From a virus (taxonomy: Duplodnaviria; Heunggongvirae; Uroviricota; Caudoviricetes), in IMG/VR virus record IMGVR_UViG_2778261354_000013, positions 1 to 14,055 of that record: a DNA stretch of 14,055 bases, one strand, 5' to 3'. Below the pieces are notes generated by a model that was not told the DNA's origin, did no database searches, and worked only from the letters and a program-made list of their open reading frames with translations. The translations under genes were made by a program, and so were the position numbers. This document shows positions 1-14,055 of this stretch, one piece after another. The number at the start of each line of letters is the position of its first letter. The first letter of the stretch is position 1.

Positions 1-1734
1 ATGATTCAGGATGCATTTGTCCGCATAAGAGCAAGACAACTTTACTGGCAAGGGTACACGCCTGCGGAAATCTCGCAACTGATGGGGATCAGTCAGAACA
101 CGATTTACTCATGGAAAAAACGCGATGAGTGGGATGCCACGCCCCCGATCCAGCGTGTCACTCAGTCCATTGATGCGCGGCTGATCCAGCTCACCACCAA
201 AACGGAAAAAAGCGGCAGTGATTTCAAAGAAATTGACCTGCTGACGCGCCAGCTGAAAAAACTGAATGACAGCCAGGGGGAACAGGTTGTTTCCGGTAAA
301 AAGCCCCGCAAGCGCAAACTGAAAAATCACTTCACCGAAGAACAGATTGCCGCGCTTCGTGAAAAAATCCTGCCGTCACTGGCCTGGCATCAACGCGAAT
401 GGTACGAAAACCGCCACCACCGAAACCGCATGATCCTGAAGTCGCGTCAGATTGGGGCGACCTGGTATTTTGCGCGCGAGGCGCTACTGGATGCGCTGCG
501 TGATGACGTCTCCGCCGGGTATCAGCGCAACCAGATATTTTTGTCCGCCTCCCGTCGTCAGGCGTATCAGTTTAAACACTTTATTCAGCAGGCTGCTCAG
601 GAAGTGGATGTCGAGCTGAAAGGGGGCGATAAGATTGTGCTGTCCAACGGCGCAGAACTGCACTTCCTCGGTACGTCAGCTGCCACCGCGCAGTCCTATA
701 GCGGCCATCTGAAATTCGACGAATTTTTCTGGGTCAGTAACTTTGTGAATCTCAGGAAGGTTGCCGGGGCAATGGCGACGCTGGAAGGGCTTACGCGTAC
801 CTACTTTTCAACGCCGTCAGGTGAAACACATGAGGCGTATCAGTTCTGGACGGGGGACCGCTGGAACAGCGAACAGCCACGCTCAAAACGCAGTGAGTTT
901 GATGTTTCACATGCGCACCTGAAGGGGGGCGTGCTCTTTCCTGACGAAACATGGCGGCAGATTGTCACCATTGAGGATGCTGTCGCTAACGGATGGCGGT
1001 ACACCAATATTGGTGTTATTCGCGGCGAAAATACAGAAAGTGAATTTCGTAATCTGTACATGTGCGAATTTGTCCGTGATGGTGAGGCAGCCTTCAGCCT
1101 GAGTGCGCTCACCGGCTGCGGTGTTGACGGCTATGACGAATGGCCGGACTGGAAACCTTTTGCTGCCCGCCCTGTGGGGGTGAGGGAGGTCTGGCTTGGG
1201 TATGACGCCAACGGCAGCAGCGGGAAGGGGGACTGCGGGGCACTGTCGGTGTGCGTGCCGCCCCTTGTTGCCGGTGGGCGTTTTCGCACGGTGGAAACCG
1301 TCAGGGTTCAGGGCATGGAGTTTGAGCAACAAGCCGCCCTGATTGAAGAGTACACGAAGAAATATAACGTGAAACATATTGGTATTGATGTGACCGGCGG
1401 GAACGGGGAAGGGGTTTATCAGATAGTGAAAAAATTCTTCCCCCTGGCTGTTCCGTACAACTTCAATATCGCGTCCAAACGGGCGCTGGTCATGAAGATG
1501 CTTCAGGTGGTCCGTGCCGGACGCTGGGAGTATGACCGCAGCGAGCGCGACCTGGTACAGGCCTTTGCATCGGTGCGAAAAATACAGACGCCCGGCGGTT
1601 ATATCACCTATGACACGGACCGCTCACGCGGTGTCAGTCATGGTGATCTCGCCTGGGCAACCATGCTCGCTGTCATCAATGAGCCAATCGGCGCAGAGCG
1701 CGAGGATAATCGCGGCTTTGCAATGGAGTTCTGA
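1..1734 (+). CDS. Terminase large (ATPase) subunit, P2 gpP-like
   Basis: 577 aa ORF starting at base 1. Terminase-type deviant Walker A (KSRQIGATW); C-terminal acidic nuclease-like segments (LGYDANGSSG, HIGIDVTGGNGEG); followed 5 bp later by the portal gene as in the P2 P-Q operon. The true start may lie at or before the window edge. Confidence 0.8.
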   Translation: MIQDAFVRIRARQLYWQGYTPAEISQLMGISQNTIYSWKKRDEWDATPPIQRVTQSIDARLIQLTTKTEKSGSDFKEIDLLTRQLKKLNDSQGEQVVSGKKPRKRKLKNHFTEEQIAALREKILPSLAWHQREWYENRHHRNRMILKSRQIGATWYFAREALLDALRDDVSAGYQRNQIFLSASRRQAYQFKHFIQQAAQEVDVELKGGDKIVLSNGAELHFLGTSAATAQSYSGHLKFDEFFWVSNFVNLRKVAGAMATLEGLTRTYFSTPSGETHEAYQFWTGDRWNSEQPRSKRSEFDVSHAHLKGGVLFPDETWRQIVTIEDAVANGWRYTNIGVIRGENTESEFRNLYMCEFVRDGEAAFSLSALTGCGVDGYDEWPDWKPFAARPVGVREVWLGYDANGSSGKGDCGALSVCVPPLVAGGRFRTVETVRVQGMEFEQQAALIEEYTKKYNVKHIGIDVTGGNGEGVYQIVKKFFPLAVPYNFNIASKRALVMKMLQVVRAGRWEYDRSERDLVQAFASVRKIQTPGGYITYDTDRSRGVSHGDLAWATMLAVINEPIGAEREDNRGFAMEF

Positions 1735-1739
1735 AAACA

Positions 1740-2783
1740 ATGAGTAAACGTAAAAAATACACCGGAAAGCGCGGCACGGGCTCACTGGCTGATGCACTGA
1801 AATCAGCGCCGTCACTCAGTGCTTTCACGTTTGACGGTCCTTATGAAGCAAGCCGTCTTGATCTTCTTGATAACATGTCGTGCGCCGATAATGGCCGCTA
1901 CTATGACACCCCTGTGGACTGGAACGCCATAGCCCGCGCCTCCCGTCGTGCGTCCTGGCACCAGTCAGCGTTGTACTTCAAGCGCAATGCCCTTAATGGC
2001 TGTTTTATTCCTCATCCGCTCCTGTCACGCCAGGCATTTTCCGCGTTTGCGCTGGACTGGTTTGTGTTCGGTAATGCCTATCTTGAAGTCCGTCGTAACC
2101 GGCTTGGTGAACCCATTGCGCTTCGTCCGGCGCTGGCGAAATACACGCGGCGGGGCAGTGACCTTGATACGTACTGGTATCTCAGTGATGACGGCTCTGA
2201 ATACGCATTCCGGAAGGGGGCGGTGTGTCATGTGCTTAACCCCGATATCAACCAGGAAATCTACGGGATGCCGGAATATATCGGTGGCCTGCTTTCGGTG
2301 AATCTGTCGAACTCGGCGGATACGTTCCGCAAGCTCTACTATGACAACGGCTCACATGCCGGGTGCATTGTCTATGTTGGTGCCGCCCAGGCAAACGCTG
2401 AAAGCGTGGAGGCGGTAAAGAAAACGCTCACGGAATCCCGTGGCAAAGGTGCGTTCCGCAATATCCTTCTGCACGCGCCAGGTGGTGGCAAGGATGGCGT
2501 GCAAATCCTGCCGTTCCAGCAAATCACCGCGAAGGATGAATTCCTGAACATCAAGGGGAGTGCACGCGACGATATCCTTGCTGCTCACCGTGTACCGCCT
2601 CAGCTGATGGGGGCGATGCCTGACGGTAATGCCGCGTTCGGTGACGTTGAGAAAGCGGCGAGGGTGTTTTTCATCAACGAGCTGCAACCTGTCATGGAGG
2701 CCATGAAGCATGTCAATGAATGGCTTGGTGTTGAGGTGATGCGCTTTAATCCCTATGCGCTGCTTCAGGATGACGCCAGCTGA
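1740..2783 (+). CDS. Portal protein, P2 gpQ-like
   Basis: 347 aa ORF immediately downstream of the terminase gene on the same strand; size and position match P2 gpQ (about 344 aa). No single diagnostic motif was read; the call rests on synteny and length. Confidence 0.7.
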   Translation: MSKRKKYTGKRGTGSLADALKSAPSLSAFTFDGPYEASRLDLLDNMSCADNGRYYDTPVDWNAIARASRRASWHQSALYFKRNALNGCFIPHPLLSRQAFSAFALDWFVFGNAYLEVRRNRLGEPIALRPALAKYTRRGSDLDTYWYLSDDGSEYAFRKGAVCHVLNPDINQEIYGMPEYIGGLLSVNLSNSADTFRKLYYDNGSHAGCIVYVGAAQANAESVEAVKKTLTESRGKGAFRNILLHAPGGGKDGVQILPFQQITAKDEFLNIKGSARDDILAAHRVPPQLMGAMPDGNAAFGDVEKAARVFFINELQPVMEAMKHVNEWLGVEVMRFNPYALLQDDAS

Positions 2784-2810
2784 CGCGCTTCGCTTGTCGG
2801 CTGCTTCGCC

Positions 2811-2833
2811 GGGGCATAAAAAATTTATGCCCC
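2811..2833. other. Perfect 10-bp inverted repeat with 3-nt spacer (GGGGCATAAA-AAA-TTTATGCCCC) 28 bp after the portal stop
   Basis: Read directly from the sequence; no U-tract follows on either strand, so it is not a canonical intrinsic terminator. Possible 3' stabilising stem-loop or protein site. Confidence 0.4.
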
Positions 2834-3230
2834 GACTCTCCAGCTCCACCAACATAAAGCACATCTCAGCCCTTAAATTATTAATCATACTTAACATTAT
2901 GTTTTGCCGTGGTTTTTCCTCTACTTCATGCCATGTCTGCGGTGTGATGTCCCCGCGTTTAATCCCGACCCCGTAAAACTCAATCAGACGCCTTCTGACG
3001 GCCTGCTTCTCTGACCATGTTTTGATGTGGTTTTTCAAAACTGGCTTCACTGCGTGCGTATCACGCGCAATACGCCCCCATATAAAGCAACCTGCCTTCC
3101 ACCCCTCAATTCGGGCGCCCTTCCCTCGTCGCCTGCGCGCTGCAATTGCCTCGTTTTTTGTGCACCGTGCAAACCGGCCTCAGCCAGCGCCGTTACTGGG
3201 CTGAATGGGGATGAAACACATAAGAAAAAT

Positions 3231-3260
3231 TGTGCAATTTCGTGCACTTTTGTGCACTGA
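3231..3260. repeat. Three tandem 10-bp units (TGTGCAATTT / CGTGCACTTT / TGTGCACTGA) with helical phasing
   Basis: Direct reading; two further GTGCA(C/A) copies lie at 3160-3172. GTGCAC is itself palindromic. Confidence 0.5.
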
Positions 3261-3264
3261 AACA

Positions 3265-3287
3265 AACGCCCGGAACAGGGCGTTTTT
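3265..3287. terminator. Bidirectional rho-independent terminator between convergent late (P-Q) and early operons
   Basis: Stem AACGCCC / GGGCGTT with loop GGAACA, followed by TTTTT on + and by TGTTTC on -. It sits 2-5 nt beyond the stop of the last minus-strand gene (3289). Confidence 0.6.
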
Positions 3288-3288
3288 C

Positions 3289-3618
3289 TCATTTCTGCTC
3301 TCCCTTGTGTTGTGCGTTCTCCCTGATTATGTCATTGCATAAATCCACGCACTCATTGCAGATCCAAACAGATGGTCCGGCAATAATCTGTCTGACATCG
3401 TACTGGCTTTTGTTGCAGAAGCTGCAATAAAGCGTCTTCCCGACTGAAGTTGGTGTTTTGCTGGGTTCTCCACACACCAGTCGTTCGATGTCTCTTTCGC
3501 GCCGAAGAGCGATCTGGCTGCATACAGCTATTTTTTGCAGGTTGATGTTTTCTTCTTTCGCCAGTGCTTCAATTCGATCAATCAGTCGCTGTGCTTTTTC
3601 TCTGTCAATATATTGCAT
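3289..3618 (-). CDS. Standalone ClpX-type C4 zinc-finger (ZBD-like) protein, 109 aa
   Basis: C-terminal segment [39 protein letters not shown] closely matches the N-terminal zinc-binding domain of enterobacterial ClpX (recalled from memory: [37 protein letters not shown]). N-terminal ~55 aa are charged and helical. Start chosen at the ATG at 3618 (the track's 3627 is a GTG); the SD is weak. Confidence 0.75.
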
Positions 3619-3632
3619 TGTGCCCACTCTGA

Positions 3633-3980
3633 TTACTGGTTTGCGATGACTGGCAGCTCTTCGCCAGCGCCGTAGATAAACAGAATTCGCTTCATGACTT
3701 CGCTGCGCTTACAGGCTTCGATGACTGATTTTTCCTGTTGCCACTCAGCCCGTTTCGCCAGCTCCAGCCGTTCCTTTTCCGTTGGCTTCCGGTAATGCGT
3801 GATTTTGTCCGTGTACCCGTCCACAACCAGCAGCCCTTCGCGTACCATCTTTCCGGCGGCCTGATTGATTACAGTTCTTCTCACACCCAGTTTTTCGACC
3901 AGCTCCGGCGCGGAAAAACGCGGGTGTGTTTCCAGGTGGCGTAAAATGATTTCCTTTCCGGTCATTCTGGTGGGCTTCAT
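3633..3980 (-). CDS. Putative winged-helix DNA-binding protein, 115 aa
   Basis: Start reassigned to the ATG at 3980 ([20 protein letters not shown]...), preceded by GGAG SD; ATGA overlap with the upstream gene's stop. Central segment [34 protein letters not shown] has an HTH-wing pattern. Confidence 0.65.
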
Positions 3981-4147
3981 TGGGCGGCTCCTTCGTTGTT
4001 CCGGCGTTCCCGGAGTTCGGTCAGTGCTGCCAGTAAATTTTCCCACCACGTTTCTTCCACAACCGGATTGTGTCGTGAAAGCAGCTGCTGCGCTGACTCA
4101 ATCATTTTCTTCAGGTCTTTGTCGCTGATCTTCCTGATGTCGTTCAT
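3977..4147 (-). CDS. Hypothetical small protein, 56 aa
   Basis: Start at ATG 4147 (MNDIRKISDK...) with AAGGAG SD 6 nt upstream; its stop overlaps the start of the next gene (ATGA). Confidence 0.5.
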   Translation of the reverse strand: MNDIRKISDKDLKKMIESAQQLLSRHNPVVEETWWENLLAALTELRERRNNEGAAQ

Positions 4148-4182
4148 GGTGTGCTCCTTTGGTTTGCTGTTTCTGGTCATGT

Positions 4183-4599
4183 TCATGGTCTTTGTTGCCT
4201 GCGTGATTGCCTGTTGGCGGCCGAATGCACATAGCGGGCAATTGCCGCTTTTCGGTTAACGGCGGCCAGCGTTCTTGCCAGCTCTTCGTTGAGTTTTCTG
4301 GTCTGTTTTTCCCGGTACTCCGCCATGATTTTTCCGACGGGGGTCAGTGGTTCAGGTTCTGATATGGCGCGACGAGGACGTACGGCAACGATGAATGCGC
4401 TTCTGTCGGCGTTGATTCTTGCAGTCAGGATGTCGGTCATGACGGTATCTGTGCTGCGATCTGGGTTTGCAATCGTGATTTCCAGTTCGTCGCCTGGCTG
4501 TGGTCGAACACTGACGCCGCTCAGCGTCAGTGCCGGAATGCGTCCGCTCATGATGGTGCTGAAATCATGGCGCTGGAGTACGCAATGGAATCGTGTCAT
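4183..4599 (-). CDS. Hypothetical protein, 138 aa, translationally coupled to gene A
   Basis: ATG at 4599 overlaps the A stop (ATGA); GGAGGT SD 7 nt upstream. No recognisable motif; the C-terminus is a basic helical tail. Confidence 0.6.
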   Translation of the reverse strand: MTRFHCVLQRHDFSTIMSGRIPALTLSGVSVRPQPGDELEITIANPDRSTDTVMTDILTARINADRSAFIVAVRPRRAISEPEPLTPVGKIMAEYREKQTRKLNEELARTLAAVNRKAAIARYVHSAANRQSRRQQRP

Positions 4600-7109
4600 G
4601 GGTTCACCTCCGGTTGATCCACTGCCACCAGGCTTCGTGATTTCTCATCCCAGTGCACAATCCGCCCGTCAGGCAGGCGAACGCGTGCACCTCTGTGTAC
4701 GGAAAGCGCCGCGCTACTGTGCAATTCCTCGCCCGTCGTGCTCAGTGCCGACTTGATCACGGTGGTGGTGACGTCATCCAGCGGCAATGCTGTACGCACA
4801 TGTATGACGTCATCGGGCGTAGTGGTGCCGCCGGTTTTCACGGTTTTTGTGTCAGATGGCACATTTTTCAGCTGCCTGGTGAGTTGTTTTCGCTCTGTGG
4901 GGGTCAGTGACCTTAACCACTCGCCCAAATCACCTTCCGGGATGGTCAGCTTCTGCTCTTTCCTCCCTTCAGGTGGTGGGGTTTTGTCTGTTTCGTTGTT
5001 TGTTTTTTCGTCTACCCCACAGTTATTGCCACGAGTCCAAGGTGCGGCGAAGCCGCCCCCAACGTCAAAACCCTCGTCCGTGCTGTTGTCGTTTTTCGCT
5101 TCTTTTCTGACCAGTTTCCACTCGTCCTGATGGGTACAGATGGTGTAGCGCTCTCCGAGCGACGGGGCACAAATTCCGTAGATGCGCTGCGGGAGCTCGC
5201 CGTAGTCGTTGGCCTCACCGGCGGTTTCGTATGCAGTTCGTAGCAAATACGAGTTACGAGGAACAAGCACACCGCCCTGACGGATGATGTAGGAGGCAAA
5301 ACATCCCACGTCTGCGGCGGCCAGAATGGCGTCAATGTCTTCATGGTCGAGGCGCTTCGGTGATGCCGGGTTGCGCTCCATCTGTCCGGCAAGGCGGCGG
5401 AGTTCACGCCATACCTGGCGGGGCGGAATACCGAAGAACTGGAACTGCCGGATGCGGTGGAGGCTTGCCCAGGCAATGGCGTTTTCCACGGTTTCCGCCA
5501 TGGTTTTTCCTGATTCCTCATCGGCGTAAGGTTTGCCGGTTTTCGGGTCATTGCCGTGGAAGGCGCTGGCGTCCAGGTTCTTACCGATATAGGTTGCTAT
5601 GTAGCTTGCTGGCGAGCCTTTTGCCGGGTCGATCTCCTCGCATTTAAAGCGTGGTGAAATGTCGTCACCCAGTTCAGCGCGGTCTGACTTGATTGCAGCG
5701 TTACGCATAATTTCAATGATGCGGTCTTTGTTCTCTGGCGCGGTAAATACCAGCATGTGCCAGTGTGGCGTGCCGTCATGGTGCGGCTCAACGGTGCGCA
5801 CCCCGTACCAGCTCATACCGGCATCCTTCAGGGCATAACGCACGGCTGCAAAGAAGTCGTACACCAGATAATCGCTGGCATCGCGTACGGTGGCACCGTT
5901 GTATTTCGGGTTCAGGCTGCCGTCCTCGTTCACAGTGTGAAAGCGGGAAGGGCAGGTCACTGTCACGAAGAACGCGGAGTCACCGCGCGATTCGGCGATC
6001 TGTTCCATCCCTCTGACGCAGGCCATCATCTCGTTGCGGCGATTGCGTGGATTACCCAGCCCTGACCAGTACACGTCCTCCAGACTCAGGCGTTCACCGT
6101 CTTCGTTTTCAATATCCCAGCTTTTGAGAAAATCACGGGTGCGCTGGCGTTTCTCGCGAAACCCCTGAAGTGATTCATGGCTGATGTAGGGGGATGTCTT
6201 GCGCGATACTCTTCCGGCGGCACGCAGTAATTCCTCCCGCCAGAGATCAGCGAGGTGGCGCAGCTGGCTGTTCCACCAGGTGGCGCAGGTGATGCGCATT
6301 ACCGCACCCGGTACCCGCTCAGGGTCTGGTGCCGTGCGGCGGTCACGTCTGATCTCTAGTGACGGCCAGTATGGTGGGTTCACGCCCAGTTTTAACGCCA
6401 TGCGCGCCAGCTGCTGGTAAGTCAGCAACCAGGTAAACAGGTTATCGTCGCCTTTTCCGGTCCGCTCAATGACTTCATCGCATATGCGTTCCAGTTCGGT
6501 GGAAAATGCCGCCGCCGTCAGTGTGGCAAGTCGCTGAATCTGATCACGGTTGAGTTCCGGCAGCATGAGTAATTCATCAAGACGATGACGTGCCGCTGTG
6601 GCTTTGAATGCTGTCGTGGCGAAGCGTTCATTCACCTGTTTGATGCGGTTGAGGCGTCTGCTTAGCCCACGGCGAACGAAGTTATCTGCTACGTGTGTAT
6701 TGTTGTTTTTCACGCCTTCATTGCGGGCGCTCTGTTGTTTTCTGTTTAAACGCGCCAGATCACGAATGAGCGCGTTGCCAAGAAATGAGGGCAGGGCGCG
6801 AAGTTCTGCCATGGCTTCCGATACCACCGTGGGCGGATTCTCGCGTTTGTGCCGCGCCAGTTTTTCCAGTCTGATCCGACGCTCTTCGTCGTGGTGAAGA
6901 TGCGAATTAATTCGCTTGCCTTCGTCTGTGTTTGTCAGGAAGTCGACGGTTTCTTCATCCAGTCTGGCATCAATGCGAATGTCCTCGTTGATGTAGCTCT
7001 GAATGGCCTGGCGTAATGCGGTTGGCTGTGCTCTGCCGAACGTTTCAGGATCGATAACCGGTAGCGGGGCGTTCCACGGGTACGCCAGTTGTGCGTTATG
7101 GTCGCTCAT
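4596..7109 (-). CDS. Rolling-circle replication initiation endonuclease, P2 gpA family
   Basis: 837 aa. HUH-type metal-binding motif TPHWHMLVF (about 5751-5765) and paired catalytic tyrosines in SYIATYIGK (about 5589-5603). GGGGAG SD 8 nt before the ATG at 7109. Position matches P2 gene A. Confidence 0.85.
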   Translation of the reverse strand: MSDHNAQLAYPWNAPLPVIDPETFGRAQPTALRQAIQSYINEDIRIDARLDEETVDFLTNTDEGKRINSHLHHDEERRIRLEKLARHKRENPPTVVSEAMAELRALPSFLGNALIRDLARLNRKQQSARNEGVKNNNTHVADNFVRRGLSRRLNRIKQVNERFATTAFKATAARHRLDELLMLPELNRDQIQRLATLTAAAFSTELERICDEVIERTGKGDDNLFTWLLTYQQLARMALKLGVNPPYWPSLEIRRDRRTAPDPERVPGAVMRITCATWWNSQLRHLADLWREELLRAAGRVSRKTSPYISHESLQGFREKRQRTRDFLKSWDIENEDGERLSLEDVYWSGLGNPRNRRNEMMACVRGMEQIAESRGDSAFFVTVTCPSRFHTVNEDGSLNPKYNGATVRDASDYLVYDFFAAVRYALKDAGMSWYGVRTVEPHHDGTPHWHMLVFTAPENKDRIIEIMRNAAIKSDRAELGDDISPRFKCEEIDPAKGSPASYIATYIGKNLDASAFHGNDPKTGKPYADEESGKTMAETVENAIAWASLHRIRQFQFFGIPPRQVWRELRRLAGQMERNPASPKRLDHEDIDAILAAADVGCFASYIIRQGGVLVPRNSYLLRTAYETAGEANDYGELPQRIYGICAPSLGERYTICTHQDEWKLVRKEAKNDNSTDEGFDVGGGFAAPWTRGNNCGVDEKTNNETDKTPPPEGRKEQKLTIPEGDLGEWLRSLTPTERKQLTRQLKNVPSDTKTVKTGGTTTPDDVIHVRTALPLDDVTTTVIKSALSTTGEELHSSAALSVHRGARVRLPDGRIVHWDEKSRSLVAVDQPEVNP

Positions 7110-7522
7110 GCGTCACACTCCCCGACAGTTGCCGTCTGAAACGCCGCGCGGTACAGCACGAGAAGGCGCTGGTATTCGCCGATAAAACCTTCTGCGGTGT
7201 ATATACCTTTCACGGCCACGCTGTGGTTTGTCATTTCCAGAACAAGCGCCATCTCTGACGACGACCAGCTGATGGCGGTACTGTCGGTGCCGTTGATGTG
7301 AAATAAACCAAAGCTATCACCATCACCTTTCACGTCCACGCGGTAACGACCGTCAACGGTGAAGGAGAAATCCCCGTATGTGGTGATGCTGCGGGCAGCC
7401 TGTTTACAGGCACGGCGGTAATGGTCGTGCCAGTTGTTCAGACGTGAAGCCAGTCTGGGATCAACCGCCCACATCCAGTTAAAAAAGTCCTGAATATCTG
7501 AAAGTCCCTTAACGCTCTTCAT
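7106..7522 (-). CDS. Hypothetical protein, 138 aa, immediately upstream of A
   Basis: GGAGGT SD 4 nt before ATG 7522; stop overlaps the A start (ATGA). No motif recognised. Confidence 0.6.
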   Translation of the reverse strand: MKSVKGLSDIQDFFNWMWAVDPRLASRLNNWHDHYRRACKQAARSITTYGDFSFTVDGRYRVDVKGDGDSFGLFHINGTDSTAISWSSSEMALVLEMTNHSVAVKGIYTAEGFIGEYQRLLVLYRAAFQTATVGECDA

Positions 7523-7545
7523 GAGAACCTCCGGTAACAGACGTG

Positions 7546-7582
7546 CGGAAGCCTCCCGCGCACGGGTGCGGGATAGCTTCCG
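7546..7582 (-). other. GC-rich nested stem-loop in the intercistronic gap (7523-7590)
   Basis: Outer stem CGGAAGC / GCTTCCG and inner stem CCCGC / GCGGG, read directly. No U-tract, so not a canonical terminator. Confidence 0.3.
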
Positions 7583-7590
7583 GATATGGT

Positions 7591-7815
7591 TTATCGGCGC
7601 TTGTTGTTGATGAGGCTTTGCAGTTCTGCCAGGTCTTCGGCCAGATAGCTGAAGACGGCAGCGCAGTAACGGTTTGACAGCGCGTGCGTGCGCTCATGCA
7701 GCATGTTGATGTGCATGATTTGCGCGACGCGTGTTGCGCGGAAAAGTCTGCGGTTGATTTCGCTGCGGATGTGAATACGCTCAGCGCGGGCGCGCTTTTG
7801 CTTGCGGTTTGCCAT
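7591..7815 (-). CDS. Hypothetical basic protein, 74 aa
   Basis: ATG 7815 preceded by AGAGG SD at 7 nt; N-terminus is Arg/Lys-rich (RKQKRARAERIHIR). First gene after a ~380 bp non-coding spacer. Confidence 0.55.
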   Translation of the reverse strand: MANRKQKRARAERIHIRSEINRRLFRATRVAQIMHINMLHERTHALSNRYCAAVFSYLAEDLAELQSLINNKRR

Positions 7816-8112
7816 GGTGTGGCCTCTTCGTTTGTGAATTTTGAAAACTCACCATCCAGAGCTGCGAAACTGTGGGTGGCGAGACGTACGAGGTTCGCAG
7901 TACCGGCAAACGAAGAAACCGGCCCGACCGAAGTCGGCCCCGTACGCCCCGCCATAATTCTGACGCGAAAAAGACGTGGCGATACAGTACGCACAAAAAA
8001 ACCGCTGGCGCGGCTGTGCGCTTCGTTTGTCAGCAGGCTGCGAAACCCGACACCCGTTTTATGAGATGCAGCGGAAATGTAACCTGACTCAACGAGCACT
8101 GGCAAGCGGTTT

Positions 8113-8140
8113 TTGTGTTGCGTGCTGAAGTATGTATAAT
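8113..8140 (+). promoter_or_regulatory. Candidate sigma70 promoter for the plus-strand membrane-protein gene
   Basis: TATAAT at 8135-8140 with a weak TTGTGT -35 16 bp upstream; strong GGAGG SD at 8191-8195. By-eye prediction only. Confidence 0.3.
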
Positions 8141-8201
8141 CGCGGCGCAAAAATGGAATGCGCCGAAGGATAGCGGCGTTTATTAACAATGGAGGTTGTT
8201 T

Positions 8202-8669
8202 ATGCCTGTTGCTATGGAGCAAGCAGACAAGAAGATTTTTTTCCATCTGTGGTACAGCTACTGGCTGGAAGAGATGGTTTTCATACTCAGCAATAAAGCC
8301 GCTGCCGTGTTGCGCGCCGGGGCACTGATTGCTGCGGTATTGTCCTTTCTTCTCGTAGGTTTTCCCGTCCTGATGAGCCTTTGCGGGCTGGCGTTTTTTG
8401 TTTTTTCCTGGTTTTGCAGCAAGTGTGAATTCGTCGCCGAACTGGCGTGCTGGCAGAAACAGAGCTACCTTCGTCTGATTACGCAAAGGGATTCCATGAG
8501 CACTGAACGCCTCATTGAGCGCATTCTGTATCTGGAAGAAACGAACAGCGCATTCATGAAGGCGTTTGTCAGGCCTGCAAAAAACAAAGCGAGCGCATCT
8601 GTTGGTCTGTCTGCCAGCGAGCATTTGCGTTACTCCGAAAGGTTAATCTGCTGGTTGTGCGGCTTCTGA
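8202..8669 (+). CDS. Predicted inner-membrane protein with two TM helices and a C-terminal Cys-pair domain (CSKC...CWLC), 155 aa
   Basis: ATG 8202 with GGAGG SD at 6 nt spacing (the track's 8196 start is TTG). Hydrophobic segments AAAVLRAGALIAAVLSFLLVGF and VLMSLCGLAFFVFSWF. The only plus-strand gene inside the minus-strand early operon. Confidence 0.55.
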   Translation: MPVAMEQADKKIFFHLWYSYWLEEMVFILSNKAAAVLRAGALIAAVLSFLLVGFPVLMSLCGLAFFVFSWFCSKCEFVAELACWQKQSYLRLITQRDSMSTERLIERILYLEETNSAFMKAFVRPAKNKASASVGLSASEHLRYSERLICWLCGF

Positions 8670-8996
8670 CCGGCGAAGCAGCTGCGCGACGGTTTCGCCG
8701 CCTGCCCGGGCAGACGGGTATGACACTGGCATATTCAGCTTGAGTGCCATTGCGTACTCCGCCCATGCGCCAGCGGACTCTTCCCATCCATCCAGTAAGT
8801 AAATGGCATCGGCACACATGAGCATCGGAATACAAATGCTCATGTACTGCTGTTGGCTCATGAATACCGATGCGCCACCCACAAACGGCTCAACCAGGCA
8901 GTCAGCTTCTGGCAGATGCGCCTTCAGTGTGTTCATGATGCGGCTTTTGCCGCCCACCCATACCAGCGGTGTACCGGATAACCGTTCTTTGCTCAT
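8643..8996 (-). pseudogene. Dam-family N6-adenine methyltransferase, N-terminal remnant (117 aa ORF, truncated)
   Basis: [35 protein letters not shown] matches the Dam N-terminal SAM-binding region (E. coli Dam from memory: [35 protein letters not shown]). The ORF ends after 117 aa with no DPPY catalytic motif, and none was found in any minus frame downstream. AAAGAGG SD precedes ATG 8996. Confidence 0.6.
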
Positions 8997-9205
8997 AACG
9001 CGGCCTCTTTGTTATAGGTTTCGTGCGTTAATAAATCCCATGATGCCCCGTTGTTTTTGCTCAGCAGTCGCCAGCGAAAACCGATTCTTATTACCAGGTA
9101 GTTGTGGGGTTTTATGCGTGAAAAATTCCGCACGCCGTCGCGGAATAAATGCAGCGATGCGCGGGCTTTTCTTTCCACGTTCAGGGGGGGGGCAGCAACA
9201 CACAT
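8993..9205 (-). CDS. Possible small upstream ORF (70 aa) containing a C9 tract, coupled to the Dam-like start
   Basis: Stop overlaps the Dam-like ATG (ATGA), but there is no SD before ATG 9205. A second frame (9012-9221) also spans the homopolymer. Coding status is uncertain. Confidence 0.25.
   Translation of the reverse strand: MCVAAPPLNVERKARASLHLFRDGVRNFSRIKPHNYLVIRIGFRWRLLSKNNGASWDLLTHETYNKEAAL
9184..9192. repeat. G9 homopolymer tract (C9 on the minus strand)
   Basis: Read directly: nine consecutive G at 9184-9192, between the exonuclease stop and the Dam-like gene. Confidence 0.9.
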
Positions 9206-9231
9206 TCAGGATGGCGACCATAGCTTCACAC

Positions 9232-9813
9232 TCATATGCTCAGGAATGGCGTTGGGAAGCGCTGCCAGATTTCTGACACGACCCTTGCCTGGTAAATGGC
9301 ATCGCCCAGTGCAGTGTGAGCAATGGTCTCTTTGCCTGATCGGCCTGGTATTCCCCAGCCGGAGGACTTAGCCATGTCGATAAGCGAGCGCATACAGCGC
9401 TCGTTCCAGTAGCGCCACGGAATACTTTTTTCTCCGGTTGTTCGCTTTATGGCTGATCTCAGGATTGGGAAAACAAAGGATGCGCCCTTGCACCATACGA
9501 TTAGTTGATTGCCCATGGTTTCGTCTTGCATGTTGCGCGAAATGAACGCCAGAAATTCGGTTACTGCCGCAAGTTCTGTTCCCTCTGCGTTGAGCAGGCA
9601 GGATCTGGCCTCCGCGGATTCCCCGGCCCACCATAAGGCGGTTGATGCATTGACGGTTCCGCCGTTGCGCTCTGAATCCACCGGGTCGATGTATTTCTCA
9701 AACTGCTTGCCCAGCTTTCCGGTGAACGGGTCGAAAAACACCGCGCCGATCGCGAATATGACTGCATCCGGTCCGGTACCCAGTGTTTCGGTGTCGATCA
9801 TGAGATGGTTCAC
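9232..9813 (-). CDS. DnaQ-like (DEDDh) 3'-5' exonuclease, 193 aa
   Basis: Exo I motif MIDTETLG and Exo III motif HTALGDAIYQA. Start proposed at GTG 9813 (AAGGAG SD 8 nt upstream; GTGA overlap with the upstream stop); ATG 9801 is an alternative. Confidence 0.75.
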   Translation of the reverse strand: MNHLMIDTETLGTGPDAVIFAIGAVFFDPFTGKLGKQFEKYIDPVDSERNGGTVNASTALWWAGESAEARSCLLNAEGTELAAVTEFLAFISRNMQDETMGNQLIVWCKGASFVFPILRSAIKRTTGEKSIPWRYWNERCMRSLIDMAKSSGWGIPGRSGKETIAHTALGDAIYQARVVSEIWQRFPTPFLSI

Positions 9814-10034
9814 TGTGTGCACTCCTTCTGTTCGGCGTTGTTCGTGAGCGTTGCAATCAGTCGTTCAATGGATGAACATGTTTCCAGCGGGGAGGTGTGC
9901 TTCTCTCTCGCCGTGTTAACCAGGTCACTCAGTAATTCGCAGATATGTGCACGCTCGGCTTTTCTTGCGGCCATGCTGATGTGTGCATGATGGTTAACTG
10001 GTCTGGCGGTTGTTGGTGATTCGACTATTCTCAT
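9810..10034 (-). CDS. Hypothetical protein, 74 aa
   Basis: ATG 10034 with AGGAG SD at 7 nt. Shares short colinear patches with the 7591-7815 protein (AERxHI ... LxNN). Confidence 0.55.
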   Translation of the reverse strand: MRIVESPTTARPVNHHAHISMAARKAERAHICELLSDLVNTAREKHTSPLETCSSIERLIATLTNNAEQKECTQ

Positions 10035-10134
10035 TTGTTGACTCCTGAAAAAAGACAAAGGGAAGCCGAAGGCATGAATGCCTTAATTAATTGTTCGTGT
10101 GTTTTCTGGTGTTATTCCGCGCCTGCTTTCAGCT

Positions 10135-10239
10135 TCAGATTATCCCCAGATTCTTCAGCGCTAACCATATAAGCGCGCACACCTGAAATACCAACCATGC
10201 AGTGGCGATATTCAGTATTATTATTTTCACGTGCTTCAT
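10135..10239 (-). CDS. Possible small hydrophobic peptide, 34 aa (MKHVKIIILNIATAWLVFQVCALIWLALKNLGII)
   Basis: Translated by hand from the minus strand; not in the ORF track (below its length cutoff). ATG 10239 lies 12 nt after the upstream peptide's stop with a weak AGAG SD. One predicted TM segment. Confidence 0.25.
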   Translation of the reverse strand: MKHVKIIILNIATAWLVFQVCALIWLALKNLGII

Positions 10240-10251
10240 AATCTTTTCTCT

Positions 10252-10377
10252 TTATTTACGGCGTTTGTCGCCAGTAAAAAATAATTCGACATCCTTCAGT
10301 GTGTGGATAATTCGCATAACGCCGATTGCCATAAGCACGGATATAATCAGAATTACCCATGAAAGGAATATGCTCAT
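10252..10377 (-). CDS. Small single-pass membrane peptide, 41 aa (MSIFLSWVILIISVLMAIGVMRIIHTLKDVELFFTGDKRRK)
   Basis: Translated by hand; AGGAG SD 7 nt before ATG 10377, whose start overlaps the upstream gene's stop (ATGA). Hydrophobic N-terminal helix and charged C-terminal tail. Confidence 0.45.
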   Translation of the reverse strand: MSIFLSWVILIISVLMAIGVMRIIHTLKDVELFFTGDKRRK

Positions 10378-10616
10378 GCTGCCACTCCTGTGAAGTAAGG
10401 CTCAACAATTTCACCTTCAAACAGTTCTGTCATAATCGACTTTAATTCTTCCAGTGCTTCACGGTCATCGCTGCCCAGCGCGCAGTTATACAGTCCCATA
10501 ATTGCGCCGCGCAGTGAGTTACGAAGGCTTTCATCCTTAGTTACGCCCCGGTTTGCAAGTTCGAAGTGGTAACGCTGCAACGCGTTATTAATAAGTATTT
10601 TGTAGGCTTCGATCAT
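10374..10616 (-). CDS. Hypothetical protein, 80 aa
   Basis: ATG 10616 with AAGGA SD at 7 nt. No motif recognised. Confidence 0.55.
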   Translation of the reverse strand: MIEAYKILINNALQRYHFELANRGVTKDESLRNSLRGAIMGLYNCALGSDDREALEELKSIMTELFEGEIVEPYFTGVAA

Positions 10617-10634
10617 GACTGAATCCTTTATTTA

Positions 10635-10979
10635 TCAGTGCTTACTTCCCGGATACTGAAAACACAGGCCGTTGATTAATCTGTCTGCCGTTCTTAAGGC
10701 ATCAAAAAATGTGAAGTCCTGTCCGAAGTAATCATCTCCGCGAGTCAGAGTAAAATTAAATCGGCCAGTAACAGGGCTGCGAAAACTTTTGTGAATAACG
10801 ATGTCGGTATCACCAATCGTCCAGGTGTGCTTGCCAGTTTGTTTTACCGGGTGACCGTCTGGTGTGGCGTGTATTTCGGTGGTTGCGGTCGCACTATTTT
10901 TACGGAAGTGCTGGCGTGCACCGTGGCGTTCGGTGCCAGTGAAGAATTTTAGTCGTGAGGTACTAGCGTTTTTCTTCAT
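10635..10979 (-). CDS. Hypothetical protein, 114 aa
   Basis: ORF with a weak SD, in operon context directly downstream of the Cox-like gene. No motif recognised. Confidence 0.5.
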   Translation of the reverse strand: MKKNASTSRLKFFTGTERHGARQHFRKNSATATTEIHATPDGHPVKQTGKHTWTIGDTDIVIHKSFRSPVTGRFNFTLTRGDDYFGQDFTFFDALRTADRLINGLCFQYPGSKH

Positions 10980-10999
10980 AGTTATGCTCGCTTCATTGT

Positions 11000-11203
11000 T
11001 TAGCTGTTGGCTATTGCGTCTTTTAACATAGCTATAAGGTTTACTTCTGGTTTTTCCATTTTGACACGTTTGGGGCGGATAATAATTCGACCGTCAGCCA
11101 ACATCTTTTTGCATGTGTTAAGAGGAATGCCTGTTATCTCGGCGTATTTCTTCAGAGATACGTAAGGGGCATTAACGTTGATGTTTATTGTTATACCTTG
11201 CAT
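11000..11203 (-). CDS. Cox/excisionase-like HTH regulator, 67 aa
   Basis: Start reassigned to ATG 11203 (MQGITININVNAPYVSLKKYAEITGIPLNTCKKMLADGRI...) with AGGAGG SD at 8 nt. The PY-HTH-(R/K)M(I/L)xDG(K/R) pattern resembles P2 Cox (recalled from memory). Confidence 0.6.
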   Translation of the reverse strand: MQGITININVNAPYVSLKKYAEITGIPLNTCKKMLADGRIIIRPKRVKMEKPEVNLIAMLKDAIANS

Positions 11204-11207
11204 CCCG

Positions 11208-11426
11208 TTAACCTCCTGAGCATGAAGATTGGCTTTGCTCTTTCTGTGTAACCTCAAGGCCGCGAAGGAAGATCATGCGTGCCATGTTAGAGGATGTGCG
11301 TTGTTCTTTAGCCGCCATTTCATCAATGACGGCTCGCTCTTCTGCTGACAATCGAAGTGCTAGTCGTTGGCCTGTTGCGGTGTTACGCGGAATACGTGAT
11401 CTGGTGCTGTGATTAACTTGTTTCAT
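11208..11426 (-). CDS. Ribbon-helix-helix (RHH) DNA-binding protein, 72 aa; first gene of the early operon
   Basis: RLALRLSAEERAVIDEMAAKEQRTSSNMARMIF has a beta-strand then helix pattern typical of RHH/MobC-like domains. No SD before ATG 11426; sits directly at the divergent switch region. Confidence 0.55.
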   Translation of the reverse strand: MKQVNHSTRSRIPRNTATGQRLALRLSAEERAVIDEMAAKEQRTSSNMARMIFLRGLEVTQKEQSQSSCSGG

Positions 11427-11501
11427 AGTGGTATATTGTGATCATCTAATTGCTCGTTAAGGTATTTTGGTATCAAAAAAGATACCTGTCAAGGTTTTTG
11501 T
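11427..11501. promoter_or_regulatory. Divergent lysis-lysogeny switch region with repeated GGTAT half-sites and a consensus -35 on the minus strand
   Basis: Perfect TTGACA on the minus strand (11487-11492); GGTAT motifs at 11430-11434, 11461-11465, 11469-11473 and inverted at 11482-11486. By-eye prediction. Confidence 0.45.
11469..11486. promoter_or_regulatory. Candidate operator: 18-bp dyad GGTATC-AAAAAA-GATACC
   Basis: Perfect inverted repeat read directly; it abuts the minus-strand TTGACA and lies 16 bp upstream of the repressor ATG. Confidence 0.5.
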
Positions 11502-11906
11502 ATGAAAAATGATATCGGTCAGCGGCTGCGTGAGGAAAGGGAACGGCTGGGTCTTAGCCAAGTCGCTATGAGTGATATTGGTGGGGTTAAAAAGTTAACC
11601 CAACTTAGATATGAGAAAGGGGATAGCTTTCCTGATGCGGCGTACTTATCAGCATTGTCGCGTTTTGGCCTTGATGTTCAGTATGTCGTGTTGGGAATTC
11701 ATTCACCTGAAACTTATAACGATGATGAACAGGAGTTGATCACACGTTTTCGGAGTGCCTCACTAGATGTGAAAAACGCGGTGATTGGTGCTTTGAAAGG
11801 TGCAGTCACTGAAAAGGAGGACCAGTTATCAGGGGGAGAGTTAAATATCTCTGGCGGGAATAACCGCATCGCAGGCCGTGACTATAACGAAACAAAAGGT
11901 AAGTGA
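11502..11906 (+). CDS. XRE-family HTH repressor (putative immunity repressor, C/CI-equivalent), 134 aa
   Basis: N-terminal HTH (IGQRLREERERLGLSQVAMSDIGGVKKLTQLRYEKG); divergent from the Cox-like/RHH genes and upstream of int on the same strand. C-terminal tail carries the NNRIAGRDY motif. Confidence 0.7.
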   Translation: MKNDIGQRLREERERLGLSQVAMSDIGGVKKLTQLRYEKGDSFPDAAYLSALSRFGLDVQYVVLGIHSPETYNDDEQELITRFRSASLDVKNAVIGALKGAVTEKEDQLSGGELNISGGNNRIAGRDYNETKGK

Positions 11907-11921
11907 TAGCAAGGAGGTGGC

Positions 11922-12566
11922 ATGACGGTCAACTCAAACGGTTCAAATAATCGCATTGCTGGGCGAGATTACCAAGAAAAGAATATTCAGATAGAGCGAT
12001 ATGATGGCTCTCATACCGTCAATATCGCAATTCCTTCGAGCAATGACAGTGATCAACGTCCTTTGCTTAAGATTCAGCGGAAGGCGTTAAATAGTTTGGT
12101 CGCTACTATTGTAGATGCCAGCAATACCGAAGCGTTTATTATTTGGCAAAAATTGCATGCAGAGATTGGTGTAGACGGTATTGATGATATAACAATGAAT
12201 CAATATAAGACCGCAGAGAGCTTTCTGTGTGCGATGCTTGAACGATGTAAAGATCATGATGCGCGTAAGGCACTTGTAAGTATTTTACTTCGTAATAGTG
12301 AAGTTGGAGTGCTTCGTCAAAAACTTATCCGCTATTGCCATATCAATTTCGGAACGGGTCGCTTAAACGATCTTACTCGTTCTCAGCTTCAGATGGCTCT
12401 TTCCTGGTTAGACCAACAATCCGTGGAAGGAGAAAAGAAATTAACTGCTAACAATTCTGTCGGTAGTCAATTACAGATGAATTTTCAGCAAATAATTAAA
12501 AAACACCCAAAAGAAACAGGAATGTGTTTCGTTGTTGGTGTTTTATTAGGCAGTGTTCTTTTCTGA
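11922..12566 (+). CDS. Hypothetical tail-anchored protein, 214 aa (C-terminal TM helix MCFVVGVLLGSVLF)
   Basis: Strong AAGGAGGT SD; N-terminus repeats the NNRIAGRDY motif of the repressor tail; AT-rich codon composition suggests acquired cargo. Confidence 0.6.
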   Translation: MTVNSNGSNNRIAGRDYQEKNIQIERYDGSHTVNIAIPSSNDSDQRPLLKIQRKALNSLVATIVDASNTEAFIIWQKLHAEIGVDGIDDITMNQYKTAESFLCAMLERCKDHDARKALVSILLRNSEVGVLRQKLIRYCHINFGTGRLNDLTRSQLQMALSWLDQQSVEGEKKLTANNSVGSQLQMNFQQIIKKHPKETGMCFVVGVLLGSVLF

Positions 12567-12761
12567 TAGATAGTTGTTGGAGAAAGATATTATGGCAAAA
12601 GCTTGCTTTACCGACTTTAGAATAAATGAAAAAGATAAATTAAGCGAGCTGACAAAGGTGGGAGGGGGCTAGTGATGTAAGAAATGGTGTGAGTTACTTG
12701 TCATGGTCTTAAAGAAAAGTAAGTCTTTGTTCATGAGGAAGTCCAAAGAGGTAAATGAATT

Positions 12762-13019
12762 ATGGTAACTAATCCGCAAATTCCATTAACTGGTTTATAT
12801 GTATCTAAAGTTAATCCATCTAATCGTATAGTTGTTACTAATGTTCATATTGTCCAGGGCGATGACGATGAGCCCGGAGATCTTCCTTTCTATTTGGTTA
12901 CTTTTGTAAATGAGGGGGATGAGGATGATATGTCGGCTCCTTCTTGGGAGCTTGATCCTGATGAATGGGAGCAGTTAGTTGATGAAAAGCTCTTTATGCG
13001 GGTTGGGCAACCATCTTAA
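12762..13019 (+). CDS. Highly acidic small protein, 85 aa
   Basis: AAGAGG SD 10 nt upstream of ATG 12762; D/E-rich clusters (GDDDEPGD, EGDEDD, ELDPDEWEQLVDE). Lies between the cargo gene and int. Confidence 0.5.
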   Translation: MVTNPQIPLTGLYVSKVNPSNRIVVTNVHIVQGDDDEPGDLPFYLVTFVNEGDEDDMSAPSWELDPDEWEQLVDEKLFMRVGQPS

Positions 13020-13053
13020 TAACGAAAATTTTCCTTGGTGTGCACTTTTTAAT

Positions 13054-14055
13054 ATGTCTGTTCGTAAACTATCTACTGGTAAATGGCTCTGTGAATGCTA
13101 TCCCTACGGAGCAGCAGGAAAACGCATTCGTAAGCAGTTTGCGACAAAAGGTGAGGCGCTCTCTTATGAGCGCCGTTTAATGAACAGTAATTTAGGGGGA
13201 GAGTTTCAGGATGGTTCTGGTCCCCGTCTTTCCGAGTTGGTTGCTCGCTGGTTTGATATGTACGGTAAAACGTTGTCTTCCGGTGAAGAGCGCAAGGCTA
13301 AACTTGAGGCGGTTTGCTCTAGGTTGGGTGATCCGTTTGCTTCTCAATTTGATAAAAATATGTTTGCCATCTACAGGGAACGGCGGTTATCAGGTGAATG
13401 GAATCCAAAGGGGAAGAAAAAACTTAGTGAAGCAACCGTTAATCGCGAGCAGTCATATTTGCATGCTGTTTTTGCTGAACTGAAGCGCCTTGGGGAGTGG
13501 TCTGGTGAAAATCCATTGACAGGTATTCGCAAGTTTCGTGAGGAAGAAAAGGAGCTGGCGTTTCTGTATGCAGATGAGATTGAACGCCTTCTGATTGCAT
13601 GTGATGAGTCACGGAATAAAAATTTGGGTGTTGTCGTCCGTATTGGGCTTGCGACTGGTGCCAGGTGGAGTGAAGCAGAGGGATTAAAGCAATCTCAAAT
13701 ACTGCCTGGACGAATCACATTTGTTAAAACCAAAGGAAAGAAGAACCGCACTGTACCTATTTCACCTCAATTGCAGGCCATGCTTCCTAAAAAACGCGGG
13801 GCGCTTTTTTCACCATGTTATGAGGCTTTTGACGCCGCTATTAAGAGAGCAAAGATCGAACTTCCTGACGGGCAATTAACTCATGTGCTACGTCATACGT
13901 TTGCCAGCCATTTTATTATGCGGGGAGGAAATATTCTTGTGTTGCAAAAAATACTGGGGCATAGCGATATAAAAATGACTATGCGTTATGCACACTTTGC
14001 GCCGGATCATTTAGAGGCTGCTGTTGAACTGAATCCCTTTGACAATAGAGAGTAA
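13054..14055 (+). CDS. int: Tyrosine integrase, P2 Int-like
   Basis: Start reassigned to ATG 13054 (MSVRKLSTGKW...). C-terminal catalytic signature HVLRHTFASH ... GHSDIKMTMRYAHF; the N-terminus resembles P2 Int (recalled from memory). The stop is the last base of the window. Confidence 0.9.
   Translation: MSVRKLSTGKWLCECYPYGAAGKRIRKQFATKGEALSYERRLMNSNLGGEFQDGSGPRLSELVARWFDMYGKTLSSGEERKAKLEAVCSRLGDPFASQFDKNMFAIYRERRLSGEWNPKGKKKLSEATVNREQSYLHAVFAELKRLGEWSGENPLTGIRKFREEEKELAFLYADEIERLLIACDESRNKNLGVVVRIGLATGARWSEAEGLKQSQILPGRITFVKTKGKKNRTVPISPQLQAMLPKKRGALFSPCYEAFDAAIKRAKIELPDGQLTHVLRHTFASHFIMRGGNILVLQKILGHSDIKMTMRYAHFAPDHLEAAVELNPFDNRE

Follow-up and report, generated by a model that had tools for sequence, protein, structure and literature searches.

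The 14,055-nucleotide stretch of viral DNA analyzed in this study (IMG/VR record IMGVR_UViG_2778261354_000013, positions 1 to 14,055; hereafter the window) corresponds to the early and replication region of a P2-family prophage in reverse orientation, with a long early operon on the minus strand. The interval of interest, 7816 to 8996, contains a truncated Dam-like open reading frame (ORF) on the minus strand, a convergent plus-strand gene coding for a 155-amino-acid (aa) protein, here called ORF155, and a long spacer. We conclude that this interval very probably consists of three independent and ordinary features of a P88-type (Xuanwuvirus-like) P2-family E. coli prophage, namely a deletion, a cassette carrying ORF155, and an RNA switch. 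A first-pass annotation had proposed that the plus-strand gene took the place of the 3′ two-thirds of dam. A truncated gene beside a convergent gene looked like a gene replacement; in our reading it reflects a separate deletion that fused two neighboring genes.

The nearest deposited phages are the P88-type Xuanwuviruses. The exact ORF155 protein was found on one E. coli draft contig, NJZR01000002.1 (GCA_002461255.1), with the gene order of the window. Searches were made of the representative genomes of 185,579 species, 5,426 complete E. coli genomes, and a collection of 15 billion proteins, and 50,697 deposited phage records were searched by tblastn. About one-fifth of the complete E. coli genomes match some part of the searched region. 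The dam region was compared with the corresponding regions of E. coli SCU-172 and JNEC-KY204. A literature search using the accession numbers and the PHROG identifier found no paper.

The minus-strand ORF of 117 aa at 8643–8996 is a chimera of two half-domains, as judged from Pfam matches and alignment:

8860–8996, minus strand: 5′ remnant of dam, codons 1–46, with the S-adenosylmethionine (SAM)-binding motif EPFVGGAS (PF02086, TIGR00571)
8643–8859, minus strand: 3′ part of the DUF4406 gene, codons 46–116, fused in frame to the dam remnant (PF14359, alignment)

The Dam-like, SAM-binding N terminus reported earlier was borne out by the profile searches. Residues 13–48 match PF02086 (D12/Dam) at profile positions 1–38 (E 6e-9), which is 38 of the 253 positions of that profile, and the TIGR00571 dam match scores 42 bits, below the NCBIfam cut-off of 115 bits. 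The region of SAM-binding motif I (FxGxG-like) is kept as EPFVGGAS, and residues 1–46 are nearly identical to residues 1–46 of the intact 314-aa Dam of SCU-172. Dam homology had been thought to end where the plus-strand gene ends; it stops at residue 46 (~8860), 190 bp upstream of the overlap with that gene. Residues 46–93 match PF14359 (DUF4406) at profile positions 44–91 of 91 (E 5e-14), and the last 71 residues of the ORF are the C-terminal half of DUF4406 (residues 46–116). Residues 1–45 of the 116-aa relative are deleted, and the complete 91-position domain is not present in the window. As first noted, a catalytic DPPY-type motif ([DNS]PP[YFW]) is found in none of the six frames of 7500–9300; in the intact SCU-172 Dam, DPPY lies at residue 204.

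In SCU-172 the gene order is 3′–5′ exonuclease, ParE-like gene, 314-aa DNA adenine methylase, and 116-aa DUF4406 protein; in JNEC-KY204 a 326-aa methylase gene and a 120-aa DUF4406 gene are separated by two small genes. Alignment of the window with SCU-172 gave one clean gap of 970 bp with flanks 93% identical; relative to JNEC-KY204 the gap would be 1454 bp. Comparison of the parental and fusion sequences placed the junction at 8859/8860, where Dam M46 is joined to DUF4406 S46 with one shared base, so that the protein reads GGASVFM followed by SQQQYMSICIPML. The clean gap and the single shared base at the junction point to an illegitimate deletion. Approximately 1 kb would have been lost by illegitimate recombination with 1-nucleotide microhomology, taking with it all of dam after codon 46 and the first 45 codons of DUF4406.

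Because the ORF lacks both DPPY and the N-terminal half of DUF4406, its product is best treated as a remnant, one that, from its sequence, is almost certainly inactive for both the Dam and the DUF4406 functions. It is very unlikely that the fusion is a functional, selected chimera, for example a SAM- or nucleotide-binding regulator kept for translational coupling in the early operon. It is in frame, it keeps the dam start codon overlapping the stop codon of the upstream ParE-like gene, and it retains EPFVGGAS and the C-terminal half of DUF4406; however, about one-third of random deletions would be in frame by chance, and the Dam catalytic motif and the DUF4406 N-terminal half are both missing. 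Moreover, the deletion was seen only in the source contig, where the gene call bears both Pfam domains. The 22-nucleotide junction was absent from the representative genomes, none of the complete E. coli genomes matched at least 80% of the region in one contiguous place, and the exact fusion protein was absent from the protein collection; no conserved full-length family of the 117-aa ORF was thus found in the collections searched. The deletion looks recent and private to the source contig.

The idea that the truncated ORF arose when a moron bearing a plus-strand membrane-protein gene entered dam and took the place of its 3′ two-thirds is scarcely credible. The plus-strand gene does converge on the truncated ORF with a 27-bp overlap and no DPPY remains nearby, but the last 71 residues of the ORF belong to DUF4406 and are not the product of reading on into inserted DNA, and the DNA that was lost forms one internal block, 190 bp away from ORF155. 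In both SCU-172 and JNEC-KY204, where dam and DUF4406 are intact, the ORF155 gene occupies the same position, and its overlap with the DUF4406 stop is 27 bp and 40 bp, respectively. The alignment with relatives carrying an intact dam, which the first-pass annotation had suggested, showed a deletion that lies apart from the ORF155 cassette.

Just upstream of the fusion ORF, and overlapping the dam start codon, is a 70-aa gene with a ParE-like toxin domain (8993–9205, minus strand; PF24732, E 8.5e-18). No antitoxin gene is annotated beside it in the window or in the relatives.

The spacer of 386 bp had been described as non-coding and GC-rich. Its GC content is 53%, as compared with 51% for the window and 56% for the neighboring genes, and matches to Rfam showed that it holds two minus-strand RNAs, isrK and C4, belonging to a module that continues into the next gene:

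8076–8105, minus strand: isrK promoter, candidate sigma-70, with −35 TTGCCA at 8105–8100, an 18-nucleotide spacer, and −10 TACATT at 8081–8076 (promoter scan)
7995–8069, minus strand: isrK-type small RNA (seqA / a1b1 element), with a1 at 8046–8037 and b1 at 8030–8021 (RF01394)
7872–7959, minus strand: C4 / P4-CI-type antisense RNA, with b′ loop at 7916–7907 and a′ segment at 7900–7894 (RF01695)
7816–7871, minus strand: leader with C4 target sites a2 at 7870–7861 and b2 at 7834–7825 (complementarity to C4)
7591–7815, minus strand: gene for a 74-aa P4 epsilon-like derepression (antirepressor) protein, putative (PF25738, phrog_3688)

The isrK match (RF01394) scores 61.2 bits against a gathering threshold of 50, and the RNA ends in an intrinsic terminator composed of a hairpin and U7. 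The C4 match (RF01695, in clan CL00128 with the P4 CI RNA) scores 83.5 bits against a gathering threshold of 45 and covers model positions 1–87 of 87. The isrK promoter was the only promoter-like site found in 7400–9300 and is conserved in phages P88 and Shae_phiSM. Two other explanations of the spacer were rejected: a tRNA scan of the window found no tRNA, and an Rfam scan of the window found no family besides C4 and isrK, which disposed of a retron. The presence of the isrK-C4 module explains the long gap noted in the first-pass annotation.

The complementarities expected of such a module were found. Two 10-mers, GUUUCGCAGC and ACAAACGAAG, occur identically in isrK and in the leader downstream of C4, and C4 carries a complementary CUGCGAA segment and a UCUUCGUUUG loop; this loop is perfectly complementary to CAAACGAAGA over 10 nucleotides. 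The pairings of C4 to a1/b1 and to a2/b2 are 7 nucleotides long for the a-type sites and 9–10 nucleotides for the b-type sites. The b2 site overlaps the Shine-Dalgarno sequence GAAGAGG (7829–7823) of the 74-aa gene, which starts at 7815.

Rfam matches for the module were obtained in the window and in eight further loci, and covariation was compared in six loci: the window, KY204, P88, O103, Shae_phiSM, and PhiR46_1. The a-type sites co-vary among C4, isrK, and the leader in all six. The b-type sites co-vary in four of the six; the O103 leader b2 has one mismatch to its C4, and in PhiR46_1 no complementary b leader copy of at least 7 nucleotides was found. The C4 loop/target type is CAAACGAAG in the window, CTAGCAAAG in KY204, CAACTACAG in P88, and CTACACACG in O103. 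Co-variation of the pairing sites among otherwise close prophages implies that there are several distinct RNA-immunity specificities. In SCU-172 the isrK-C4-derepression module is tandemly duplicated (locus L001, 2263–2738 and 3092–3567), so that the derepression gene (WP_000013462.1) occurs twice in identical form and C4 and isrK are each present in two copies.

The 74-aa protein matches PF25738 with 28.3 bits against a cut-off of 27 (E 1.5e-6), matches phrog_3688, and is 77% identical to the “derepression protein” of P88; its similarity to P4 epsilon itself is weak (32% over 50 aa, E 0.8, tblastn). From this marginal match we classify it as a member of the P4 epsilon “Derepression” family and a putative antirepressor. 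P4 E (epsilon) is an antirepressor that binds P2 C (PMC2995052). Toward the replication gene A, the 74-aa gene is followed by a 138-aa gene and then by A. The 138-aa gene (7106–7522, minus strand) matches phrog_3237 (E 3e-50); tblastn comparison of this ORF with P4 orf151 and the deposited phage records found nothing, and P88 has a different, 121-aa gene at that position.

The arrangement suggests a minus-strand module of the P1 immI / P4 type, in which the isrK promoter would drive first isrK, whose a1 and b1 may serve as decoy or processing sites, and then C4. The a′ and b′ segments of C4 would pair with a2 and b2 in the leader, b2 covering the ribosome-binding site of the epsilon-like antirepressor gene. 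By analogy with P1, P4, and Gifsy-1, C4 would block translation of the antirepressor and isrK would counteract C4. The IsrK of Gifsy-1, which is structurally homologous to P4 seqA, is located upstream of the processed RNA STnc1160, likened to P4 CI by the authors of that study, and controls translation of the antirepressor AnrP, which is needed for induction (PMC4825925). In P1, C4 regulates the antirepressor Ant (PMC8201110).

The third feature is the cassette carrying ORF155:

8202–8669, plus strand: ORF155, a two-transmembrane-helix protein of orphan family phrog_6315 (profile match, alignments, codon changes, hydropathy, AlphaFold model)
8129–8672, plus strand: ORF155 cassette, approximate limits, comprising the −10 TATAAT, 5′ leader, GGAGG, and ORF (homology boundaries)

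The gene described in the first-pass annotation was confirmed in sequence: GGAGG is present at 8191–8195, six bases before the ATG, and the 3′ end overlaps the 117-aa minus-strand ORF by 27 bp (8643–8669). Of the promoter then proposed, the perfect TATAAT at 8135–8140 stood. The two transmembrane helices were also upheld, by a hydrophobic stretch of about 40 residues (aa 33–72) interrupted by G-F-P, which in hydropathy analysis fits two transmembrane helices, and by an AlphaFold model (predicted local distance difference test score, pLDDT, 79) with a hydrophobic helical hairpin at aa 33–72 followed by three shorter helices. Both cysteine pairs (CSKC, aa 72–75; CWLC, aa 150–153) are present as stated; because the cysteines vary across the family alignment, the zinc site suggested for them is unsupported, and we rejected it.

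ORF155 matches phrog_6315 (E 2e-28). An exhaustive HMMER search of 1.8 billion representative proteins yielded 11 related clusters, and a profile search with the family yielded 37 proteins. All homologues found are hypothetical proteins of 150–157 aa from Enterobacterales without Pfam domains; the E. coli form has 69 cluster members, one of them on 671 contigs. Conserved in the family are an N-terminal F..W.SYWLE helix, an A..A..Q...Y..L pattern after the second membrane helix, and an E..DS...NPA.N.A segment. In comparisons of the window with three close E. coli copies, synonymous to nonsynonymous codon changes in the plus frame numbered 22:15, 13:8, and 7:5, versus 3:32, 1:18, and 1:10 in the frame of an antisense 371-aa ORF (7509–8624, minus strand). 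The possibility that this antisense ORF is the real gene was rejected, since its changes are overwhelmingly nonsynonymous and it overlaps isrK, C4, and the derepression gene; judged by its codon changes, it is a shadow ORF. ORF155, far from being the spurious, unconserved frame it might have been, is by the same comparisons a real, conserved gene under purifying selection.

In Yersinia phage vB_YenM_42.18, the deposited annotation has a 221-aa hypothetical coding sequence without similarity to the window (NC_070913.1 2950–3615; locus L004, 3303–3968). The opposite strand (L004 3492–3959) codes for a 155-aa ORF155 homologue, and the 221-aa coding sequence appears from this to have been called on the wrong strand.

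The limits of the cassette were taken from the points at which homology to relatives is lost. P88 and Citrobacter phage Shae_phiSM do not have ORF155, and their homology to the window ends near 8118–8124, just beyond the isrK −35. The SCU-172 allele of ORF155, which is 39–41% identical to that of the window, diverges after 8128, re-converges just past the stop codon, and has its own TAGAAT element. The match of E. coli O103 to the window ends at 8682, and in O103:H2 12009 and other strains the ORF155 gene adjoins unrelated early genes. The boundaries thus fall near 8119–8128 and 8670–8682, and two highly diverged alleles occupy the same slot. GC content is 50% in ORF155 and 56% in the neighboring genes. 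The part of the original proposal that called ORF155 a moron-type unit is supported: it is a bounded cassette with its own −10, it is missing in P88 and Shae_phiSM, two alleles occupy its slot, and its orientation is anti-lytic.

Distant relatives of ORF155 are antisense to lytic genes in every context examined (P2-, 186-, and Mu-like prophages). They were found in the Yersinia P2-like phage, in a Salmonella 186-like prophage between Fil and DUF5347, in Mu-like prophages beside the large terminase gene, and in Pectobacterium P2-like prophages between cox and the C repressor, in the direction of C and int. In these Pectobacterium prophages (loci L011 and L012, 5001–5468) the homologue lies within the Pe/Pc switch region, which in P2-like phages is normally compact.

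In front of most divergent ORF155 homologues there is a small ORF of 26–58 aa that carries the motif FH(V/I)LHKPAP(P/A) and terminates a few bases short of the two-helix gene. Homologues with the small ORF come from Yersinia, Pectobacterium, Salmonella 186-like, and Mu-like prophages and from one metagenomic contig, at these positions:

L004, ~3372–3491: small FHxLHKPAP ORF
L011, ~4887–5000: small FHxLHKPAP ORF
L009, ~4920–5000: small FHxLHKPAP ORF
L013, 4812–4988: small FHxLHKPAP ORF
L008, upstream of 272: small FHxLHKPAP ORF

This placement suggests a two-gene cassette composed of the small ORF and the two-helix gene. The small ORF was not found in the window, and the E. coli lineage to which the window belongs is without it. 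A separate observation concerns the leader of ORF155, which contains a GC-rich hairpin, CGCCG...CGGCG, at 8161–8178; on the minus strand, immediately upstream of the isrK promoter, it has the score of a terminator-like element, and it might limit read-through from the early operon into the isrK-C4 module.

Database searches offered little about the function of ORF155. Pfam, PHROGs, NCBIfam, and PADLOC contained no informative family, and no Pfam match was found at E 0.1 or better. For single members of the family, SLATT_4 was matched at E 0.11 (one of ten members) and the PADLOC “2TM effector” profile at E 0.027 (one member); no SLATT Pfam model matched at significance. Foldseek matches to SLATT proteins had TM-scores of 0.28–0.58 and probabilities up to 0.96. 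SLATT proteins are predicted pore-forming effectors with two or three membrane helices in defense systems (PMC9226505). ORF155 is lone, or preceded only by the 26–58-aa ORF, in every context examined, and no nucleotide-signaling, reverse-transcriptase, or other sensor gene was found beside it in those contexts. We regard the relationship to SLATT as a lead only.

The slot that holds the cassette is variable and lies immediately upstream of the isrK promoter; the cassette is oriented against the early lytic operon. The product would be a two-helix inner-membrane hairpin whose C-terminal domain is helical and probably cytoplasmic; made in lysogens from the prophage, it may act at the membrane to exclude infecting phages or abort their growth. 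We tentatively favor such a lysogen-expressed inner-membrane protein that interferes with incoming phages, though we would not call it probable, because of the orientation of the gene, its mobility between prophage types, the allelic divergence in one slot, and the membrane topology. The wider proposal, that phrog_6315 is an unrecognized prophage membrane exclusion or abortive-infection factor, in most lineages a two-gene unit with the tiny FHxLHKPAP peptide and mobile among P2-, 186-, and Mu-like prophages, is more doubtful.

Two other roles were weighed. ORF155 might serve the prophage itself, either as a membrane-anchored modulator of lysis or induction or through convergent transcription that blocks early read-through into isrK-C4-antirepressor-A during lysogeny. 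The ORF155 and isrK promoters are back-to-back, with −35 regions within ~10 bp; transcription of ORF155 opposes the early transcripts heading to gene A; and the position and direction of the Pectobacterium homologue between cox and the C repressor fit this role as well. However, the gene is dispensable for P88-type phages, since P88 and Shae_phiSM are without it, and it also occurs in Mu-like prophages beside the terminase gene, where no isrK or C4 was seen. Purifying selection on the protein makes a purely RNA-level role insufficient, and finding two such highly diverged alleles in a single slot is more typical of conflict genes. A role in the biology of the prophage is therefore somewhat unlikely. 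Less likely again, and in our judgment improbable, is that ORF155 belongs to a two-gene pair of the toxin-antitoxin or abortive-infection type, as its toxic membrane member, and that the small partner was lost in this lineage. The FH(V/I)LHKPAP(P/A) ORF that precedes divergent homologues and is missing in the window would be such a partner, and the faint similarities to 2TM effectors or SLATT point the same way; but the small upstream ORFs are short and of putative coding status, and the partnerless E. coli form is widespread and intact, as its cluster membership and contig count show, which argues against an unneutralized toxin.

Several observations weigh against our account of the interval and of ORF155. 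The deletion rests on a single draft-assembly contig, and an assembly error is formally possible; dam and DUF4406 share no similarity that would cause assembly collapse. The −35 of the ORF155 promoter is weak, with 3 of 6 matches, and for this reason a simple promoter scan of 7400–9300 did not call a plus-strand promoter for the gene; no intrinsic terminator was found downstream of it. The 74-aa protein exceeds the PF25738 cut-off by only a small margin. The search of the 155-aa protein against the PADLOC defense and exclusion profiles, which the first-pass annotation had recommended, gave 0 hits; in the Foldseek search of BFVD the SLATT matches stood at ranks 2, 8, 11, and 14 and were non-significant (E 0.1–0.9); and structure searches of the PDB returned generic helical hairpins only.

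The gene layout of the window further includes the following:

1–2783, plus strand: terminase and portal
4596–7109, minus strand: replication endonuclease A
11502–11906, plus strand: helix-turn-helix repressor, 134 aa
12979–14055, plus strand: integrase

These assignments come from the gene and profile annotation of the window. Directly downstream of the repressor and in the same direction is a 214-aa ORF (11922–12566, plus strand) with a region like the N terminus of Flk (NF007987, E 7e-16; PF27202 on the source contig) and a hydrophobic C terminus; it may be an accessory gene expressed in lysogeny.

Nothing in the interval is categorically new, and its RNA module is of a known type. That an apparently empty spacer in P88-type P2-like prophages holds an RNA immunity switch of the P1/P4 style is useful for annotating the matching E. 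coli genomes. The orphan two-helix family phrog_6315 is the only piece with some discovery potential, and its anti-lytic orientation and allelic diversity make it a reasonable and inexpensive candidate for a phage-exclusion screen.

In comparison with known systems, the dam remnant corresponds in its first 46 codons to the phage Dam (a D12-class N6-adenine methyltransferase) of P2/186-like prophages, next to which lies DUF4406 (nucleoside 2-deoxyribosyltransferase-like). The window shares with the intact-dam loci the position after the 3′–5′ exonuclease and ParE-like genes and the closely similar flanking DNA described above, and differs in having lost the N-terminal half of DUF4406 and, from Dam, the parts for catalysis and target recognition. 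ORF155 resembles morons, or lysogenic-conversion cassettes, in consisting of one small gene for a membrane protein, with a promoter-like element of its own, and in being present or absent among collinear phages, opposite to lytic transcription, and lower in GC than its neighbors. Small inner-membrane exclusion proteins of temperate-phage cassettes include HK97 gp15, T4 Imm, and P22 SieB; unlike morons encoding exclusion proteins, ORF155 has no sequence or significant structural similarity to any characterized exclusion protein, and no terminator. It is like the SLATT 2TM effectors in its two adjacent transmembrane helices flanked by helical segments, and unlike them in having no significant profile match and no adjacent sensor partner.

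The RNA module has parallels in P1/P7 immI (c4–icd–ant), P4 (seqA–CI RNA–seqC ... epsilon ... alpha), and Gifsy-1 (IsrK–STnc1160/orf45–AnrP). The module of the window differs from all three in lying in the early region of a P2-family prophage, and from P1/P7 and Gifsy-1 in that the regulated gene codes for the 74-aa P4 epsilon-like protein and not for icd/ant or orf45/anrP. It shares with them a promoter-proximal isrK/seqA element with a1 and b1, a C4/CI-type RNA with two single-stranded segments that pair with upstream and downstream repeats, and a downstream site lying over the ribosome-binding site of one gene of an antirepressor operon. As in Gifsy-1, isrK is located upstream of the C4/CI-type RNA and the antirepressor gene; a replication gene follows farther along this strand, as it does in P4; and the six loci compared here, like the c4 systems of P1 and P7, have differing, co-varying specificities.

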